Below, in pieces: positions 7,757 through 38,580 of a stretch of DNA of 64,000 bases (positions within the stretch are counted from its first letter, which is position 1; each line of letters opens with the position of its first letter). Position numbers and translations under genes: made by a program. The notes under the pieces were generated by a model. It was not told where the DNA came from. It searched no databases and saw nothing but the letters and a program-made list of their open reading frames with translations. This DNA is from an uncultured Actinomycetes bacterium. GTDB taxonomy: Bacteria; Actinomycetota; UBA4738; JBBDHU01. Location of the stretch: assembly GCA_964640385.1 (NCBI GenBank), contig CAZXFL010000003.1, positions 100,725 through 164,724 on the forward strand, given 5' to 3'.

Positions 7757-7835
7757 GTGCCCCGGGAGGAATCGAGCCCCCGCCACCCGGTTAGGAAACC
7801 GTTGCTTCTATCGACTGAGCTGCGGGGCCCGGGCC
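7757..7835 (-). other. tRNA-like remnant (pseudo-tRNA)
   Basis: Minus-strand sequence has a GCTCAGTCGATAG D-arm-like segment, a GGGGGCTCGATTCCTCC T-arm-like segment and a 3' ...CGGGGCACC end. The anticodon region forms only a tetraloop hairpin (CGGTT-TCCT-AACCG), so no valid cloverleaf can be drawn. Confidence 0.3.
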
Positions 7836-8003
7836 GGGGGCCAGAGCAACTGGCGCTCTAACGGGGCTCGAGCTCAAGGGCCCTGTCGGCCCTCTACCCT
7901 ATCCTGTCGGCCCTCTGCCCTTTTAAGGAGCGCTTGGCGGGCCCAACCCCACCGGGGCTGCGCAGGGCCCGGAATGAAAAGATTCGCAGGTCAGAGCATA
8001 TTC

Positions 8004-8190
8004 GCGGAGGCGGACGGGATTCGAACCCGCCGGGGAGTTTTCGCCCCCACACCGGTTTTGAAGACTGGTGGGATCCGTCCATGGGGTCTGCGCTAGTCCA
8101 CGCGGGTCCACCCTCAGGCGCAAGTTGTCTACTCGGGTCCACCCTCGTCCGGGCGGGTCCGTGAACGGATGTCTGTAGGGCGTCAGTACG
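8004..8190 (-). repeat. partial copy A of the tRNA(UCA) 3' half, fused to a conserved ~120-bp arm repeat
   Basis: 8004-8064 matches the anticodon-loop-to-3'-end segment of the tRNA at 12005-12096 (TCTTCAAAACCGGTG...GGCGGGTTCGAATCCCGTCCGCCTCCGC). 8065-8190 matches 9651-9780 (GGATCCGTCCATGGGGTCT.CGC.AGTCCACGCGGGTCCAC...GTCAGTACGG). Confidence 0.6.
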
Positions 8191-8427
8191 GGGAGCAGGT
8201 CCAACCCGGGTGGCAAGTCATGATTCGGCGAGCGGACCGACTATTGGGGCCCTGTCGACCGAACCCACCGCTAGGATGCCGAGCATGGCCCGACGCCTCC
8301 TCGTGGCACCCGTCTGGATCGCTGCGTGCGTACTGGCGCTCACGGCTTGCACGGCACGAAGCAAGACCTTCGAACGTGACGGAGCCTCGTTCCAGTACCC
8401 GACTCCTGGAACGCGCAGGCCACGGTC

Positions 8428-8859
8428 GTGGGTGAGAACCCAACCGAGAGCTGTGGGAACGGTTTCTGGTCGGTCAGTTTCGAGACCGGGTCCGCTGCAC
8501 AGGCAGATGTCGTCCTATGTCCAGTCAGCGTCAATCCCGCCGATGAAGAACAGATCGAGAGTCTGATCACCGATGACTTCGATCGGCAGCACCCCAGCGG
8601 GATGGAGTGGACGCTCCGCGACCTCACGGATCGCGAGATGGGCGGGTTGAGAGGGATGTATGGGGAGGCGGAGGTGCTAGCAGGGCGGGGAGCCGAACTC
8701 GGCATCGAGGAAGGGACCCATCATGAGTACAGTGCGATCGCGACGAATAGCGGGAGTGTGGATTGGTACCGGATCGTTTGCACGTTCCCGAATCCCGATC
8801 CTGCCGATGTCGGCCAGGCGTGTCAGGACATGGCCGAGTCGTTCACGGCGGAGGCGTAG
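8428..8859 (+). CDS. hypothetical protein, possibly the frameshifted mature part of a lipoprotein
   Basis: ORF of 143 aa. A lipoprotein signal (MARRLLVAPVWIAACVLALTAC) is encoded in another frame at about 8279-8400 and runs into this ORF. This suggests a frameshift or a sequencing error. Confidence 0.35.
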   Translation: MGENPTESCGNGFWSVSFETGSAAQADVVLCPVSVNPADEEQIESLITDDFDRQHPSGMEWTLRDLTDREMGGLRGMYGEAEVLAGRGAELGIEEGTHHEYSAIATNSGSVDWYRIVCTFPNPDPADVGQACQDMAESFTAEA

Positions 8860-8867
8860 CCAGCTCG

Positions 8868-8935
8868 CTTGAAGTTGTCTACGCCAGTCCACCCTCGTCT
8901 ACGCGGGTCCATGAATGGATGTACTGAGGATCTAG
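8868..8935 (-). repeat. solo copy of the distal part of the arm repeat
   Basis: GTTGTCTACGCCAGTCCACCCTCGTCTACGCGGGTCCATGAATGGATGT matches 8128-8185 and 9708-9775. Confidence 0.5.
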
Positions 8936-8945
8936 CCGAGGTCCA

Positions 8946-9455
8946 TCATTTCGCCGTGACCGCCCAGGTGCCGTGCACGTTGAAGGAGAACGAGCTGCTG
9001 GTGATGTAAGGCGACGTACCCAAGACGAAGCCCCAAGGCGTGACGCCCGCCGACGCCTGGGTCCGAGGGTCAACGAAGACGACGCTTCCCTGAGACCACC
9101 CGCCACCGTAGTAGATGCAAAGGTGGCCGGGCTTGGCGGACGGCTTGCTGACCGTGCCCTGGCATGCCGCTGTCGTCTCACTGGGGCCGAGTACGTGGCC
9201 GACCGGAGTGAAGTTGAGTCGTTGAGGGAACGTCACGGCCTCCAACTGCATGTTCTGGGTCGCACCCGTTGCCTGCATCCCGCTCACGTTGAAGACGCCG
9301 CGCTCGGTCTTCCCGGACGGCAAGGCACCGGCGGCTCGCGGTGCCGGGCCTTCGGTGTCGCTCAGCGAGGTTCCCGCATAGGCGCCGCCGCCGAGGGCGA
9401 GCACAAGGGCCATGGTGGAGACGACGTTCGCGTAGGTGAGCCGGAAACGACGCAT
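8946..9455 (-). CDS. secreted hypothetical protein
   Basis: Signal peptide MRRFRLTYANVVSTMALVLALGGGAYA. Island cargo. Confidence 0.5.
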   Translation of the reverse strand: MRRFRLTYANVVSTMALVLALGGGAYAGTSLSDTEGPAPRAAGALPSGKTERGVFNVSGMQATGATQNMQLEAVTFPQRLNFTPVGHVLGPSETTAACQGTVSKPSAKPGHLCIYYGGGWSQGSVVFVDPRTQASAGVTPWGFVLGTSPYITSSSFSFNVHGTWAVTAK

Positions 9456-9574
9456 CGGAACCTCCCGGGTCGGATCGAGGCAATGCTATCACCGGCGGTC
9501 GGGGTGAACACCAGGCGTGGAGGCCCCCACTCCCGTGAACAGGTCGGCAAGGGTTACGCAGGTCTCCGCATGTG

Positions 9575-9780
9575 AGCGGAGGCGGACGGAGCGGAGGCGG
9601 ACGGGAATCGAACCCGCCGGGGAACTTGCGTCCCCCCACCGGTTTTGAAGCCGGGTGGGATCCGTCCATGGGGGTCTACGCCAGTCCACGCGGGTCCACT
9701 CTCAAGCGTGATGTTGTCTGCGCCAGTCCACCCTCGTCCACGCGGGTCCATGCACGGATGTCGGTACAGCGTCAGTACGG
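9575..9780 (-). repeat. partial copy B of the tRNA(UCA) 3' half, with a 15-bp tandem duplication, fused to the same arm repeat
   Basis: 9590-9650 matches the 3' half of the tRNA. AGCGGAGGCGGACGG is present twice in tandem (9575-9589 and 9590-9604). 9651-9780 matches 8065-8190. Confidence 0.6.
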
Positions 9781-9870
9781 AGACCTGAACGCCCTGACGG
9801 GATGGGCGTAGGTGACGCCCAGCCCGTTCGAATGAACCCAGTCGTCGGTGAGGATCGAGGCGGAGCTCGC

Positions 9871-12000
9871 CTAGCAGGCTCCCGCTGCGGCGCAGACCCC
9901 GATGTCTCCCAGCGTGCCGTTCGCCCCGCCGTCGCCGTCGAGCCCGTCGTCCTCGCCCGTCCCTTGGACGGCTGGGGCACTTGCGCCACCGGTCCCCCCG
10001 GTTCCGCCGCTCCCGCCGCTGATGGTGTTACCGGAGATCACGGGTGCGCTCGCCGCTCCGGACCGGTAGATCCCCCAACTGGAGCCGCCGGCGCCCCCGC
10101 CACCGCCCCCGCCATGACCACCGTGGGCTCCGGCGCCACCGGCGCCCGGGCTGGACGATCCGGGGTGCAGACCCGGAAGCCCGCCAGAGCCACCCGGCTG
10201 GCCGCGGCCGCCGCTTCCGCCGTTCCCACCGTTGCCACCATTCCCTCGCTGGATGTCGTTGCCGGAGATCGTCGGAGAGGAGTCGATGACATAGATGGCG
10301 AATGATCCGCCTCCAGCGCCGCCTCCGCCGCCGCCCCCGCGAGCGGCAAGTCCTCCAGCGCCGCCTCCACCGCCGCCGCCGCCCCAGGCGTCCGTCCCGC
10401 TATCGCACCCGCCGCCGCCTCCTCCTCCTCCTCCTCCGCTCCCGTTCTGACCTGTGCCGCCGCCGCTGGCTGCCGATCCGAACCACAATTCCCCAGACAA
10501 GAAGCCTCCTGAGCCGCCCCCGGCCCCGGCTGATCCATTGACGACCATGCCGGGAGAACCAGTGCCTCCGGCCGTGCCGCCGCCGGCGTCGCAACCGGCT
10601 GAGTTCGCCGGGCCGCCGGTCCCCTGAGCGCCCGCGCCGCCCGACGTGAAGTCGGCGGACGACCCGACGTCGCCGGAGGTGGCGGTCAGATCGAAGGGGC
10701 AGCTGTTGTCCATCTCCCCGCCGGCGCCGCCGGCGCCGCCGTCCATGTCGCGCGAACTCGGTGAGGTGCCCGAATTCGTCCCGCGTGATCCCCCGGCACC
10801 GTGGCTCGTGTCATCGCAGGCCAGCTGCTCGGCACCGGATCCCCCTTGATCACCGGAGGGCGCCGCAGTGAGCGTCGTCGCATCCCAACCGTTCCCACCG
10901 TCTGCTCCGTCCGCGCCGTCGCCCGCGATGATGGTGTTCCCCGAGATCGTGAGGACACCCGCCGGCACGTCCTCGACGAGGATCGTGTACGACGCCTTCA
11001 TCGATCCGCCGACACCCGTGGTGGAATTCGCCCCCTGCAGTGTGAGATCGGCCAGGATCGTCGGCTGGGTCAGCCCCTCGGCTGCGACGGTGACGGTCAT
11101 GGTCCGGTCCGGAGTCGCTGTCGTTACGACGGCGCCGTCGATGCCCTGCACGGTGGCCTCGTGACCGGGCGACTGAGGCGACGCGCGTAGGTACGATTGG
11201 TCGTAGCCGCCATAGACGCTCACGCCGTTGGCCATCTGGAAGAACCCGCTCGGGTAACTACCGGCCGCGACGTAGACGTCCCGATGCCCATTTGCAGCCG
11301 CGGTATCGATGCCCTGCTGGACGGTGGCACACGGGGAAGCCATCGTGCAGGCAAATCCCGAACCGGTTGTGGCAACGAAAGCCGCCTCGGCGACCTCGCC
11401 GTCGATCCCGTCGCAGTTGACGTCAACGAAGATCGTGTCCGGAAGGTCCGCGAGGCCTGGATGCACGCTGGGGTCGGCCGGTGCGCAGTCGCCGGTGGCC
11501 GGAGAGTATCCATCGCCGTCCGCATCCAGGGTCTTGGTCGGCACCGTCTTGCTCCGGGCCTGATTCCCGGAGCGATCGGTGACGGGCTTGGAGCGCGTGC
11601 GCTTGTAGGTGAGCCCGGGTGCGGCGGCCAAATCGGGCGAGCCACTCTCGGTCAATACGATCGTGATCGTCTTCCCCTGCGCGGCGCCGGCGCTCGCAAC
11701 CGAGTATCCCGCGACCTTGAAGGGGTACTTCCCGTCGGCATCGGCTTGGTGTCGAACCTTCTCGTTGTACGTGATGAGGATGCGGTCGACCTGGCCATCC
11801 GCGTCCAGATCCAGCATGGCAGCGCTGACGATCTTCGGCGGCTTCCGATCCGCGGCTCGTGCGTGCGGTGGGGGCAGGATAGCGGCAAGGACGAGTACTG
11901 GAACGATGATGGCTCGTGGGGTTCGGCGCACCGCGGAGATCCTCCCTCTCCGGAAGTATGAGCCGACCCTGTGTGGCTGTCGAGTCGCGTCTACGACTCC
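9871..12000 (-). CDS. large secreted glycine-rich parallel beta-helix repeat protein with MopE-like metal-binding motifs
   Basis: Signal region (RTPRAIIVPVLVLAAILPPPHARA). DADGDGYSPATGDCAPADP...DVNCDGIDGE is a putative MopE-type metal-binding motif. Repeated ISGNTI/ISGNDI beta-helix caps and long Gly-rich tracts. The ORF track extends it artificially through the tRNA. Confidence 0.6.
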   Translation of the reverse strand, partial: GVVDATRQPHRVGSYFRRGRISAVRRTPRAIIVPVLVLAAILPPPHARAADRKPPKIVSAAMLDLDADGQVDRILITYNEKVRHQADADGKYPFKVAGYSVASAGAAQGKTITIVLTESGSPDLAAAPGLTYKRTRSKPVTDRSGNQARSKTVPTKTLDADGDGYSPATGDCAPADPSVHPGLADLPDTIFVDVNCDGIDGEVAEAAFVATTGSGFACTMASPCATVQQGIDTAAANGHRDVYVAAGSYPSGFFQMANGVSVYGGYDQSYLRASPQSPGHEATVQGIDGAVVTTATPDRTMTVTVAAEGLTQPTILADLTLQGANSTTGVGGSMKASYTILVEDVPAGVLTISGNTIIAGDGADGADGGNGWDATTLTAAPSGDQGGSGAEQLACDDTSHGAGGSRGTNSGTSPSSRDMDGGAGGAGGEMDNSCPFDLTATSGDVGSSADFTSGGAGAQGTGGPANSAGCDAGGGTAGGTGSPGMVVNGSAGAGGGSGGFLSGELWFGSAASGGGTGQNGSGGGGGGGGGGCDSGTDAWGGGGGGGGAGGLAARGGGGGGGAGGGSFAIYVIDSSPTISGNDIQRGNGGNGGNGGSGGRGQPGGSGGLPGLHPGSSSPGAGGAGAHGGHGGGGGGGAGGSSWGIYRSGAASAPVISGNTISGGSGGTGGTGGASAPAVQGTGEDDGLDGDGGANGTLGDIGVCAAAGAC

Positions 12001-12004
12001 TTCG

Positions 12005-12096
12005 AGCATATGAGCGGAGGCGGACGGGAATCGAACCCGCCGGAGAACTTGCGTCCCCCCACCGGTTTTGAAGACCGGGGGGCCCACCAGGAACCC
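12005..12096 (-). tRNA. selC: class-II tRNA with anticodon UCA (tRNA-Sec/selC candidate, or a Ser-type opal suppressor)
   Basis: Minus-strand fold: acceptor GGAGGCG/CGCCTCC with discriminator G; 3-bp D-stem with a GG-containing 11-nt D-loop; anticodon stem CCGGT/ACCGG with loop CUUCAAA (the same loop as E. coli selC); a ~20-nt variable arm forming a 6-bp hairpin with a GCAA loop; T-arm GGCGGG-TTCGATT-CCCGTC. The acceptor plus T-stem total 13 bp, as in tRNA-Sec. Confidence 0.5.
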
Positions 12097-12244
12097 TGAC
12101 GCCTCCGTGGGGCAGCCTATCCGTCCGGCGCCGTCGGCACGGTCGGGTCGCGACCGATCTCGCAGGCCGGGTTAGGCTACGTCGATGGAACCGGGTCCCG
12201 TGCGGGCCTCGATCTCGACTTCCTGATCTGAAGGAGCTGGCGAA

Positions 12245-35381: not shown

Positions 35382-35901
35382 GCCCTAGCGGGGACGGGGT
35401 CCTCGTGCGCGCTGCTCGGATCCCTTCGCTCCCGCTCGGGACCTCGTCGACGCTCGCACGAGTCCCCGCCCCCTGCCGTCACCAGCCTGCGGGCGCACCC
35501 GTTCCGCACCGTGGCCTTGGGAGCCAGAACCTGTCCGTTCCTCCGGGAATCGATCCATGGCTGTAAGGCGCGGTCGGTCGCCTGCTTTCTGGCCGTGACG
35601 GGGTCGGTGAATGCCGCATCCCTGTCCGAGGACGTACACCTCGCCCGAACGGCAGGGTGCAGTTCCCATGGCCGGGCCTTCGTCCCGAAAATGTCAGTGG
35701 TGGGAATTACAATCGTGCCATTCGGTGTTATGCACCGTTTTCCACCGGTTGTCCCAACGCCAAAACCGCAGGTGGGTAAGGGAATGACAGGAAAGTTCGA
35801 GATGCGACCTGGGGAAAGAGTTCTCCACACCCGAATCCCCTCGCTTTCCCATTCCCAGGCGGGGGGCGCGGGGCCTACCCTGCGGGTTCCGTCGACGGGG
35901 G

Positions 35902-38580
35902 GTGTGGTGGTTGGCGCTGGTCGCTGAGGATCCCCGGCGGATCCGTCCAGATCGGATACCGCCACACAACCTGGACGCTGAGGAATCGGTCCTCGGCTCC
36001 ATGATGCTGTCCGGCGAAGCCATCGCTGACGTCGTGTCCCAGCTCAAGGCCGACGACTTCTACCGTTCGGCTAACGGCACCATCTTCAAGGCCATCCTGT
36101 CGATCTACGCCCACGGCTCGCCCGTCGACGCCATCACCGTCGTCGAGGAGCTGAAGCGCGGCGGAAACCTCGAGCAGATCGGGGGTCACCTCTACGTCCA
36201 CGAGCTGGTGCAGAACGTCGCGACCCCGGCCAGCGCGGCTCACTACGCGCGGATCGTCGGGGAACTGGCGCTCCTGCGGCGGATGATCGCGGCGGCCGGC
36301 AGGATCATGGAGCTCGGCTACTCCAACCCCCGCGACCCCGAACGCACAGCAGATGATGCCGAGGACCTCATCTACAAAGTCGCCCGCCACAGCGAGCAGG
36401 ACGAGGTCGTGTCGATGGCGGCGCTCGTCGATGGCGCCATCACCGAACTCGAGAAGTCCCAGCAGCACGATTCGCCGTTCGTCGGGGTCCCCACCGGCTT
36501 CACCGACCTGGACTCGCTGACCGCGGGCCTGCACCCGGGGAACCTGATCGTGATCGCCGCGCGTCCGGGCGTCGGGAAATCCTCCCTCGTGACCAATCTG
36601 GCGCGCAACGTGGCGGTCGCGGCCGGCACCTCCGTCGCCATGTTCTCGCTCGAGATGTCGCGCTGGGAGATCGGCATGCGTCTGCTCTGCGGCGAGGCGA
36701 GGGTCCCCTGGGACAACATCCGCGGCAAGCGGACGAGCCCCGACGACTGGGCCCGCATCGTGGAGGCCGCCGAAGTCCTGAACGAGGCTCCGCTGTTCGT
36801 GGTCGACTCGGGCAACATCAACATCGTGGACATCAGGGCGAAGGCCCGGCGGCTCCGGTCCAAGCCGGGCCTGGGCATGATCATCGTCGACTACCTCCAG
36901 CTCATGTCCTCGCCGGGCCGCGTCGAGTCGCGCCAGCAGGAGATCGCCGAGATCAGCCGGAACCTTAAGCTGCTGGCCAAGGAGATGGAGATCCCGGTCA
37001 TCGCGGTCTCCCAGCTCAACCGCGACCCGGAGCGCCGGCAGGACAAGCGGCCTCAACTCTCGGACCTGCGCGAATGCGTGACCGGCGACACGTTGGTATG
37101 CCTCGCCGACGGGAGCCGGGTTCCGATCCGCGGGTTGGTCGGCTCAACGCCCGAGGTCCTCGCCGTCTCGGCCGAAGGCCGTCTGGTCGTCGCCGGCAGC
37201 GACCGGGTGTGGTCGAAGGGGAACAAACCGGTTTTCGCGGTCCAGACCGCGACCGGACGGATGATGCGGGTGACCGCGCGTCACCGTGTGCTCACCGAAC
37301 GAGGGTGGACGCGGGTACACGACCTGGAGGTGGGTGACCGGCTGGCCCTCGCCCGCAAGATGCCCGAGCCCGCCAACCCGCTCCAGTGGCCGGACGACCA
37401 TGTGATGCTCCTCGCACACCTGATCGCCGCGGCGGATCTGTCGGGCCACCCCGTGGCCTACGGCACCCGCTTCGAGGAGAACGCCCGCGCGGTGACCGCA
37501 GCGGCGCGCCAGAGCTTCGACATCACACCGGAGTGGATCGAGGGCGAGCGGCACGCCGTGTCCTTCGACGGCACGGACCACCCGAACGCGTTCGACGACT
37601 GGTTGAACGGGCTCTCGCTCGCGGGGCGCCGGCGGCCGGAGCTGAGGGTTCCCGGTGACGTCTTCCGTCTGGCGGACGCGCAGATCGCGAGGTTCTTGCG
37701 GCACCTGTGGGCCGACGCGGGCGCCATCGCTCCCGGGGTGGTCGGCGGCGGGATGGCCGACATGTGGTTCTCCGCGACCGGGCGGGGGCTCGCCGAGGAC
37801 GTTGCTGCGCTGCTCTTGCGAGTGGGGGTCGTCGCCCAGCTTCACGACGCCTCGACCGGCGCGGCGGACCGATATGAGGTCGCGGTGGTCGGCGTCGACG
37901 AGCAGGCCCGGTTCCTCGAACGTGTCGGAGCGTTCGGGCCGCTGGTTCCGTCGGCCGAGCAGCTCGCGCTGGTGCTGACCAGCATGGCCGACGTCACGAT
38001 CAGCTCCCTGCCGCGTGAGGTCTTCGACGGCAACGGGAACGGTGCCCACGGCATCTCGTCCCGGATGACGGCGGCCCTGCGAGGGACGACGTCGGGCGGC
38101 GGGGACGCGGGTTCGACGGGCGAGGCGCGTCCGTGGCACCCGAGCCGGACGGGCAAGGCGGGGACCGGAGGCGGTGCCACCGGCGTCGATCCGGACGCAG
38201 CAGCGGACGAGTCGCCCGTTCCGACAGCCGGCGGGCGGGACCTGCTCTGGGACCCGGTCGTATCGGTGGTGATCGACGGCGAGGAGGAGGTCTTCGATCT
38301 CACCGTGCCGGGACCGGCTTCCTGGCTCGCGGACGGTGTCGTGAGCCACAACTCCGGTGCCATCGAGCAGGACGCCGACATCGTCATGTTCATCCACCGC
38401 GAGGATTCCGAGGATCCGCAGGTCAAGGGCACCGCCGACCTGATTATCGCCAAGCACCGCAACGGACCGACCGGCGTCGTGAAACTGACGTTCCTGCCGC
38501 AGCTGACGCAGTTCAAGAACTACGCGCCCCCACAGGCCGTCGGCAACTACCCGCCGCAGTCGCAGCCGACCGGTCCGTGA
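35902..38580 (+). CDS. dnaB: replicative DNA helicase DnaB containing a 426-aa intein
   Basis: N- and C-exteins align with DnaB (Walker A GVGKSS; ...QLSDLRE | SGAIEQDADIVMFIHRED...). The insert begins with Cys and ends with ...VVSHN followed by Ser. Confidence 0.9.
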   Translation: MWWLALVAEDPRRIRPDRIPPHNLDAEESVLGSMMLSGEAIADVVSQLKADDFYRSANGTIFKAILSIYAHGSPVDAITVVEELKRGGNLEQIGGHLYVHELVQNVATPASAAHYARIVGELALLRRMIAAAGRIMELGYSNPRDPERTADDAEDLIYKVARHSEQDEVVSMAALVDGAITELEKSQQHDSPFVGVPTGFTDLDSLTAGLHPGNLIVIAARPGVGKSSLVTNLARNVAVAAGTSVAMFSLEMSRWEIGMRLLCGEARVPWDNIRGKRTSPDDWARIVEAAEVLNEAPLFVVDSGNINIVDIRAKARRLRSKPGLGMIIVDYLQLMSSPGRVESRQQEIAEISRNLKLLAKEMEIPVIAVSQLNRDPERRQDKRPQLSDLRECVTGDTLVCLADGSRVPIRGLVGSTPEVLAVSAEGRLVVAGSDRVWSKGNKPVFAVQTATGRMMRVTARHRVLTERGWTRVHDLEVGDRLALARKMPEPANPLQWPDDHVMLLAHLIAAADLSGHPVAYGTRFEENARAVTAAARQSFDITPEWIEGERHAVSFDGTDHPNAFDDWLNGLSLAGRRRPELRVPGDVFRLADAQIARFLRHLWADAGAIAPGVVGGGMADMWFSATGRGLAEDVAALLLRVGVVAQLHDASTGAADRYEVAVVGVDEQARFLERVGAFGPLVPSAEQLALVLTSMADVTISSLPREVFDGNGNGAHGISSRMTAALRGTTSGGGDAGSTGEARPWHPSRTGKAGTGGGATGVDPDAAADESPVPTAGGRDLLWDPVVSVVIDGEEEVFDLTVPGPASWLADGVVSHNSGAIEQDADIVMFIHREDSEDPQVKGTADLIIAKHRNGPTGVVKLTFLPQLTQFKNYAPPQAVGNYPPQSQPTGP
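37075..38352 (+). other. DnaB intein (splicing domain plus LAGLIDADG-type homing-endonuclease remnant)
   Basis: Intein block A CVTGDTLV. C-terminal HN followed by the +1 Ser. Internal LAGLIDADG-like blocks (LLAHLIAAADLSG; FLRHLWADAGAI). Inserted in the conserved DnaB ATPase H4 site, as in known DnaB-b inteins. Confidence 0.85.

Follow-up and report, generated by a model that had tools for sequence, protein, structure and literature searches.

Integrative elements are known both to accrete in tandem at transfer RNA (tRNA) and transfer-messenger RNA (tmRNA) genes and to carry helically phased binding sites for integrases and recombination directionality factors (RDFs, or excisionases), and both phenomena are already well documented. 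Accretion at one tRNA gene is exemplified by the selC-linked islands of Enterobacteria. Phased direct repeats are the format of arm-type integrase sites such as lambda P'1-P'3 and of the RDF arrays bound by lambda Xis (X1-X1.5-X2), P2 Cox and 186 Apl (Cox and Apl boxes), L5 gp36 and RdfS of ICEMlSymR7A. pSAM2/SLP1-type elements and L5-like mycobacteriophages, whose hosts are high-GC Gram-positive bacteria, share with a tRNA gene an identity segment that begins at the anticodon loop and extends to the 3' end, and cis-mobilizable elements (CIMEs) and pseudo-SCC (staphylococcal cassette chromosome) elements consist of att-bounded DNA of an integrative-element family that lacks its own recombinase and is stacked at the target of that family. 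RDF binding sites are generally built as direct repeats phased at one helical turn (PMC7498355), and RDFs of the winged helix-turn-helix type form head-to-tail filaments (PMC11963761). In the tycheposons of Prochlorococcus, repeated insertion at a single tRNA gene has left behind partial tRNAs and degenerate remnants (bioRxiv 10.1101/2020.12.28.424599), and the ssrA islands of Dehalococcoides likewise show tandem accretion of integrative elements at one RNA gene (PMC3146451). Here we analyze a 64,000-nucleotide stretch of DNA (hereafter the window) from an uncultured Actinomycetes bacterium (contig CAZXFL010000003.1 of assembly GCA_964640385.1), in which an intact selenocysteine tRNA gene (tRNA-Sec) is followed by two partial copies of its 3' half, each joined to an arm of eight regularly phased short repeats. 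We consider it fairly probable that both ~190-bp units are attR-type junctions, produced when related tyrosine-integrase elements integrated one after another into the 3' half of tRNA-Sec.

Outward from the intact gene, the order of the locus is tRNA-Sec, islet 3, arm B and core B, islet 2, half-arm C, islet 1, arm A and core A, where the cores are the partial tRNA copies and the islets are blocks of 0.7-2.2 kb that carry hypothetical genes and consist of mutually unrelated DNA. Both partial copies lie downstream of the intact gene, on its strand and in its orientation. Each spans ~69 nt, from the whole anticodon stem-loop through the last tRNA base, and not the 60 nt given in an earlier note on this DNA. 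With up to three mismatches allowed, a T-arm/acceptor pattern matches the 64 kb solely at 8009, 9596 and 12019. The two fragments score 42.8 and 40.8 bits against the Rfam tRNA-Sec model, below its gathering score of 47, and a repeat search aligned 8004-8086 with 9591-9673 at 90% identity.

The arms, each ~120-125 bp long, directly adjoin the partial copies on the side facing the intact gene, so that tRNA part and arm together form a unit of ~185-190 bp. Arms A and B are 83-90% identical throughout, up to positions 8195 and 9783, respectively. The earlier note had described both arms and a third, solo copy of their distal part. Repeat searches and alignments recover the arms at slightly shifted coordinates, and the solo copy is found by the repeat search and by the pattern GTCCACCCTCGTCNNNGCGGGTCC, which occurs three times in the window against 0.01 occurrences expected. 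The repeat search also paired 8083-8120 with 9671-9708 at 89% identity and grouped 8124-8194, 8874-8944 and 9713-9783 at identities of 83% and 66%.

The internal sub-repeats reported earlier are real; instead of a loose set, they form eight GTCY units (Y being C or T) per full arm, phased at 10 bp and divided into two clusters of four. Units start at 8077, 8086, 8096 and 8106 and at 8127, 8137, 8147 and 8157 in arm A, whose first unit is 9 nt long; at 9664, 9674, 9684 and 9694 and at 9716, 9726, 9736 and 9746 in arm B; and at 8877, 8887, 8897 and 8907 in half-arm C. The distance between the starts of units 4 and 5 is 21-22 bp, or two helical turns, and all other spacings are 10; the two four-unit clusters face the same side of the helix. 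Across the 27 units compared, the consensus is GTCCACGCGG: the GTC at positions 1-3 is invariant (27 of 27), position 4 takes C or T, position 5 takes A or G, and positions 9-10 are free. Because units of the ...ACGCGG and ...ACCCTC types follow each other in turn, the array has a 20-bp super-period, and the whole closes with a conserved tail, GGATGT..GCGTCAGTACGG. Four phased GTCY units in a row occur four times in the window, always within the arms and always on the plus strand, against a mean of 0.01 in 300 first-order Markov simulations; no such run is present in 312 kb of unrelated loci, most of them high in GC.

In arms A and B, the GTCC array is flanked by an imperfect 12-bp inverted repeat, ATCCGTNCAYGG, whose left arm (ATCCGTCCATGG) lies at 8073-8084 and 9660-9671 and whose right arm reads CCGTGAACGGAT at 8159-8170 and CCATGCACGGAT at 9748-9759. 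Two other explanations of the arm were tried and rejected. A structured RNA is not indicated by the arm z-scores of +0.2 to +1.7, and Rfam matches are confined to the tRNA parts; a coding repeat is ruled out by the 10-nt period, the 1-nt insertion or deletion between A and B, and the lack of any open reading frame (ORF) with coding-like GC3 across the arms.

The association of the unit with tRNA-Sec is also seen outside the window. An exact-pattern scan of JGI metagenomes returned one true relative, a 1.7-kb contig (Ga0209642_10095874; hereafter L004) that carries a tRNA-Sec 3' fragment and the same 4+4 array in the same register. Over 163-186 nt, its unit shares 80-82% identity with B and A (80% with B over 186 nt). 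On one side the similarity ends precisely at the tRNA 3' end; on the other it runs to the close of the tail, ~125 nt beyond the anticodon loop. The flanks, which encode an ABC-transporter ATPase and a SnoaL-like protein, differ from those in the window. Counted after the first 60 tRNA-derived bases, the units start at offsets 13, 23, 33 and 43 and 65, 75, 85 and 95 in both arm B and L004, and this base-exact distance between core and array supports a functional coupling of the two. The distal arm of the 12-bp inverted repeat recurs in half-arm C and in the sister species described below; the inverted repeat is absent from L004.

Orthologous loci were reached through the neighboring HAD hydrolase. 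In a sister species (L035/L036; GCA_040960315.1), whose HAD protein is 86% identical, tRNA-Sec occupies the syntenic position. The upstream (right) side of the gene is syntenic at 82-89% with this species and with a close relative (L034), and the downstream (left) side has no counterpart in L035, where entirely different DNA is found. tRNA-Sec is the integration target and the boundary between conserved chromosome on the right and a variable island on the left. The units all stand on the non-syntenic side, which we count in favor of attR junctions. On that side, the sister species carries a solo distal half-arm (L035 6023-6096) that is 85% identical to B and lies 2.85 kb downstream of its tRNA-Sec, beyond an HD-GerE regulator, a SnoaL/TusA protein and a DsrE gene. 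In more distant HAD orthologues, the synteny of tRNA-Sec is lost.

The cores themselves carry lineage information. Core B is identical to the resident tRNA-Sec at 59 of 60 positions; core A matches the resident gene at 53 of 60 and the tRNA-Sec of the sister species at 57 of 60. Because it is nearer to the sister gene than to the resident one, copy A is probably the displaced original 3' half of tRNA-Sec, and the two sets of identities fit a model of successive integrations. The L004 fragment is likewise 59/60 identical to the tRNA-Sec of the sister species, and its outer flank runs into the same 8-nt native trailer, CCCAGGTA, that follows that gene in L035. Tandem duplication of the unit in situ is rejected, since the units are separated by unrelated DNA and the differences between the cores are lineage-specific.

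The arrangement was reproduced at 99.86-100% identity in contigs of the same organism from JGI (L005) and Logan (L001, L002 and L006), and is therefore not an assembly artefact of one data set. L001 and L002 end at the tRNA repeats and L034 starts inside tRNA-Sec (L034 1-46); because independent assemblies break at these repeats, islands at this position will often be missing from, or split in, metagenome-assembled genomes (MAGs). Elsewhere, three exact arm patterns found no genuine copy among IMG/VR viral contigs, and the single exact-pattern match among GTDB representative genomes is a chance occurrence inside a Planctomycete coding sequence. BLASTN of unit B gave no match among GenBank phages and, among PLSDB plasmids, matched in its tRNA part only (other tRNA genes). 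A look-up through the sulfatase for DNA beyond the left edge of the window found nothing. Homologues of the 169-aa islet 2 protein occur in ordinary chromosomal contexts that have neither tRNA-Sec nor arrays, and the SnoaL-like gene of L004 is a widespread chromosomal gene whose relatives lack the unit.

Table 1 Features of the tRNA-Sec locus, in window coordinates.
Feature	Position	Strand	Details	Evidence
Intact tRNA-Sec	12016-12106	minus	Anticodon TCA	ARAGORN; Rfam RF01852 78.8 bits
Islet 3	9784-12013		Single Gly-rich secreted-protein ORF (9871 to ~11935, minus)	ORF list
Arm B, putative P arm	9660-9783	plus	Cluster 1 9664-9703; cluster 2 9716-9755; tail 9756-9783	
Partial tRNA-Sec copy B	9591-9659	minus	Anticodon stem-loop to 3' end	Repeat search, pattern, Rfam
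Extra 15-nt tandem copy of tRNA 3' tip	9576-9590	minus	GCGGAGGCGGACGGA	Read from sequence
Islet 2	8926-9575		169-aa secreted hypothetical protein (8946-9455, minus)	ORF list
Solo half-arm C	8866-8925	plus	Spacer end and cluster 2; no tRNA part, no cluster 1	
Islet 1	8196-8865		Lipoprotein-like ORF from 8276 (plus)	ORF list
Arm A, putative P arm	8073-8195	plus	Cluster 1 8077-8115; cluster 2 8127-8166; tail 8167-8195	
Partial tRNA-Sec copy A	8004-8072	minus	Outermost copy	Repeat search, pattern, Rfam

Compared with the described systems, the locus combines familiar parts. Like the RDF arrays of attR and attP sites, it has tandem direct repeats, one per helical turn, adjoining a recombination core; unlike them, its sites number eight, are arranged 4+4 and have the GC-rich motif GTCCACGCGG, and its similarity to GenBank phages and PLSDB plasmids does not extend beyond the tRNA. 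With the tRNA and tmRNA accretion islands it shares an intact RNA gene and, beyond it, partial 3' copies with unrelated cargo between them, the older insertions lying further out, and the integrase-less degenerate remnants common in those islands are likewise seen here. It yielded no active element and differs from them in its target (tRNA-Sec), its uncultured high-GC actinobacterial host and the unusually small size of its blocks (0.7-2.2 kb). As in CIMEs and pseudo-SCC elements, the DNA is att-bounded, free of a recombinase and arranged in tandem at the target, and its mobilization here would be hypothetical. The segment from tRNA anticodon loop to 3' end and the high-GC Gram-positive host recall pSAM2/SLP1-type and L5-like elements, but no int, xis, rep or tra gene is present and the arm motif is different; to our knowledge, tRNA-Sec has not been reported as a target of such elements.

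Several features that characterize an attR junction are present: the tRNA 3' repeats share one orientation, each repeat starts in the stem-loop and ends at the tRNA 3' end, and an interior arm with repeats follows. The arm stands on the side of the fragment that faces the intact gene, which is the place of the P arm in attR and supports this interpretation. We infer the following order of events. The attP of an incoming element would have consisted of a P arm and a copy of the tRNA that began at the anticodon stem-loop and included the 3' end. Recombination within the shared segment would restore the tRNA gene with the copy supplied by the element, and the previous 3' half, now joined to the P arm of the element, would be pushed further downstream. 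The next integration would repeat the process and move the first junction outward, and three such rounds would yield the present order of islets and junctions. The elements may since have lost their integration modules, or may never have had any, leaving the blocks now seen.

With its direct repeats one helical turn apart and adjoining the core, the array most likely serves to bind an excisionase or the arm-binding domain of an integrase. Eight sites of the GTCC(A/G)C type, one per helical turn, would nucleate a head-to-tail RDF filament; alternatively, the array may bind the N-terminal, arm-binding domains of integrase, and either way the P arm would be bent onto the core. The proposal in the earlier note of arm-type integrase or excisionase sites is therefore sustained as to repeat format and P-arm position, and binding by either protein stays conditional, no integrase or excisionase having been found in the 64 kb. 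Its suggestion that two integrated elements of the same family had been present holds for the sites, which belong to one family; of the elements themselves, integrase-less blocks of 0.7-2.2 kb are all that is left.

A provirus in another high-GC genome (IMGVR_UViG_3300033168_000020; L021/L022) lies directly 3' of tRNA-Sec, with selD on the other side of the gene, and its tyrosine integrase (PF00589) starts 88 bp from the tRNA-Sec 3' end. This integrase-bearing provirus indicates that tRNA-Sec is used as a target in high-GC genomes. At L021 10770-10951, it carries a short arm in which the direct repeat TGTTCCCT occurs twice with 10-bp spacing. Neither the provirus nor its relatives, which target tRNA-Leu, contain GTCC arrays. 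The arm represents a different arm-site family at the same target, and the provirus is not of the same element family.

Several observations weigh against attR junctions: (i) The bounded segment contains no integrase gene, and no PF00589 protein, other recombinase, excisionase or phage-like protein was found among the scanned ORFs of the 64-kb window. (ii) No intact element bearing the arm was present in any collection searched. (iii) No empty-site or excised variant was seen, and the sole other strain (L005, 99.86%) has the same arrangement. (iv) The tRNA 3' end (12014) is so close to the first ORF that there is nearly no space for a P' arm. (v) The similarity of A and B runs ~20-30 nt past the tRNA 3' end (7985-8017 versus 9557-9589, 82%), and a shared stretch of this kind is not predicted by a simple attR model for the outermost copy. 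(vi) Both solo half-arms, C and that of L035, lack the core-proximal half, a loss not obviously explained by random decay.

The missing integration module, the lack of room for P', the shared A/B flank and the loss of half-arms keep alive a second interpretation, in which the blocks are integrase-less gene cassettes: each 0.7-2.2 kb block with its ~185-bp site would be a complete non-autonomous unit, put in and taken out at tRNA-Sec by an integrase and an RDF that a related element elsewhere provides in trans, and the array would resemble CIMEs, pseudo-SCC elements or a stack of integron cassettes and would not be a product of decay. We give this an outside chance. Every block consists of one or two genes bounded precisely by a site, the blocks contain no integrase fragments, there is scarcely any spare non-coding DNA between sites, and the sites of different copies and genomes are well conserved, in contrast to a wholly different cargo. 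The DNA beside the arm in L004 and L035 is again ordinary-looking cargo, and the blocks, bounded by att-like sites of one family, lack recombination and transfer genes, as CIMEs do. However, no trans-acting integrase was identified, neither polymorphism nor a circular junction was seen (L005 having the same arrangement), the truncated copies in C and L035 and the frameshifted lipoprotein ORF look like decay, and only about five copies are known. That the ~185-bp unit is the complete recombination site of tiny integrase-less cassettes, captured and lined up at tRNA-Sec by a tyrosine integrase and an RDF acting in trans, seems unlikely to us.

The other alternatives fit the data poorly. Iterons and type II plasmid centromeres likewise take the form of tandem, helically phased direct repeats, and two clusters of such repeats could make the arm an iteron or centromere-like array, bound by a Rep protein or one of the ParR/ribbon-helix-helix type, of an integrated plasmid-like actinobacterial element; the array would then adjoin the att core merely through the chance layout of the element and have no role in recombination. 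This is improbable, given that the distance from core to first unit is base-exact between B and L004 and that no par or rep genes lie nearby.

Very improbable is a tRNA-derived interspersed repeat, similar to a short interspersed nuclear element or a miniature inverted-repeat transposable element, that spreads without site-specific integration. The sharp boundaries of the unit and its presence in at least three genomes would agree with such a repeat, but all copies in the window lie within 4 kb downstream of tRNA-Sec and on its strand, with none in the other 52 kb. Target-site duplications are lacking, as is, in L004, the terminal inverted repeat of A and B. Scans of GTDB representatives and viral contigs gave one chance match and no genuine copy, and the assembly breaks at tRNA repeats indicate few copies. 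A small non-autonomous mobile repeat of tRNA origin, the alternative offered in the earlier note, is unsupported in view of the same confinement to the downstream side of tRNA-Sec in its orientation, the lack of target duplications, and the flank of L004, which reads like a native tRNA-Sec trailer.

A cluster of DnaA-box-like or other host-regulator sites, co-opted or coincidental, is barely credible: the GTCCAC core would reflect the actinobacterial DnaA box, TTGTCCACA, unit 5 of L004 reads TTGTCCACG and GTT precedes unit 5 in A, B and C, but all units share one orientation and a strict 10-bp spacing, the final CA is absent from them, the array region is not AT-rich (GC 0.65) and has no dnaA or dnaN nearby, and the position relative to genes is inconsistent (A upstream of a gene, C between convergent genes, B downstream).

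The islet proteins matched no Pfam integrase or excisionase family and no PHROG. That of islet 3 has long Gly-rich (GGxGG) tracts; Pfam reports a weak MopE metal-binding motif, and PHROGs nothing. Distant homologues of the 169-aa protein of islet 2 often carry collagen-like repeats (PF01391). The lipoprotein-like ORF of islet 1 (8276-8859) has a signal peptide and a Cys lipobox-like motif and is split across two frames (8210-8566 and 8428-8859), an apparent frameshifted pseudogene. Left of copy A are genes for a sulfatase, a BamB-like protein and a cupin. The right of tRNA-Sec is core chromosome, with a Tad pilus locus, PBP1, rpsF-ssb-rpsR, an intein-bearing DnaB, trpD, dcd, dnaK-grpE-dnaJ-clpB, purA and purD. 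The GC content of the window is 68%, and distant protein homologues are labelled Solirubrobacterales or Actinomycetota. In the replicative helicase DnaB (35788-38577, plus strand), the intein contains a LAGLIDADG homing endonuclease (Pfam Intein_splicing and LAGLIDADG_3).

Smaller tRNA-related sequences surround the units. At the outer edge of copy B (9576-9605), the tRNA-Sec 3' tip is tandemly doubled, the extra copy listed in Table 1 being followed by GCGGAGGCGGACGGG, and a 9-nt match to the tip, GCGGAGGCG, lies at 8845-8853, ~12 nt left of the start of half-arm C similarity (8866). The doubled tip and the short match could stem from slippage or be the last traces of additional att sites. 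Some 175 bp downstream of copy A, a tRNA-like sequence (7757-7829, minus strand) with a CCU (Arg) anticodon-like triplet scores 23.1 bits against the Rfam tRNA model (gathering score 29) and is not called by ARAGORN; its anticodon stem-loop is malformed, and it is therefore probably a pseudo-tRNA. Between this sequence and copy A, a perfect 18-nt direct repeat, CCTGTCGGCCCTCTRCCC, occurs at 7882-7899 and 7903-7920 (plus strand) with a 21-bp period; at least two matches were obtained in 6 of 100 shuffles.

Overall, the locus is an ordinary genomic-island scar with an unusually tidy site array, and by itself it leaves general knowledge of site-specific recombination unchanged. What is new is the site family, with its GTCCACGCGG-type motif in a 4+4 arrangement and no match in phage or plasmid databases, together with the lineage and the target. 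In this uncultured, high-GC actinobacterial lineage, the units identify tRNA-Sec as a hotspot of integration and as an island boundary, and the array can be used to delimit islands in MAGs, whose assemblies break at these repeats. A core followed by eight phased sites is a clean recombination-site architecture that can serve as a probe for the missing integrase or excisionase family. If the blocks were in fact cassettes, this lineage would have a cassette system built on lambda-type arm and RDF sites instead of integron attC sites.

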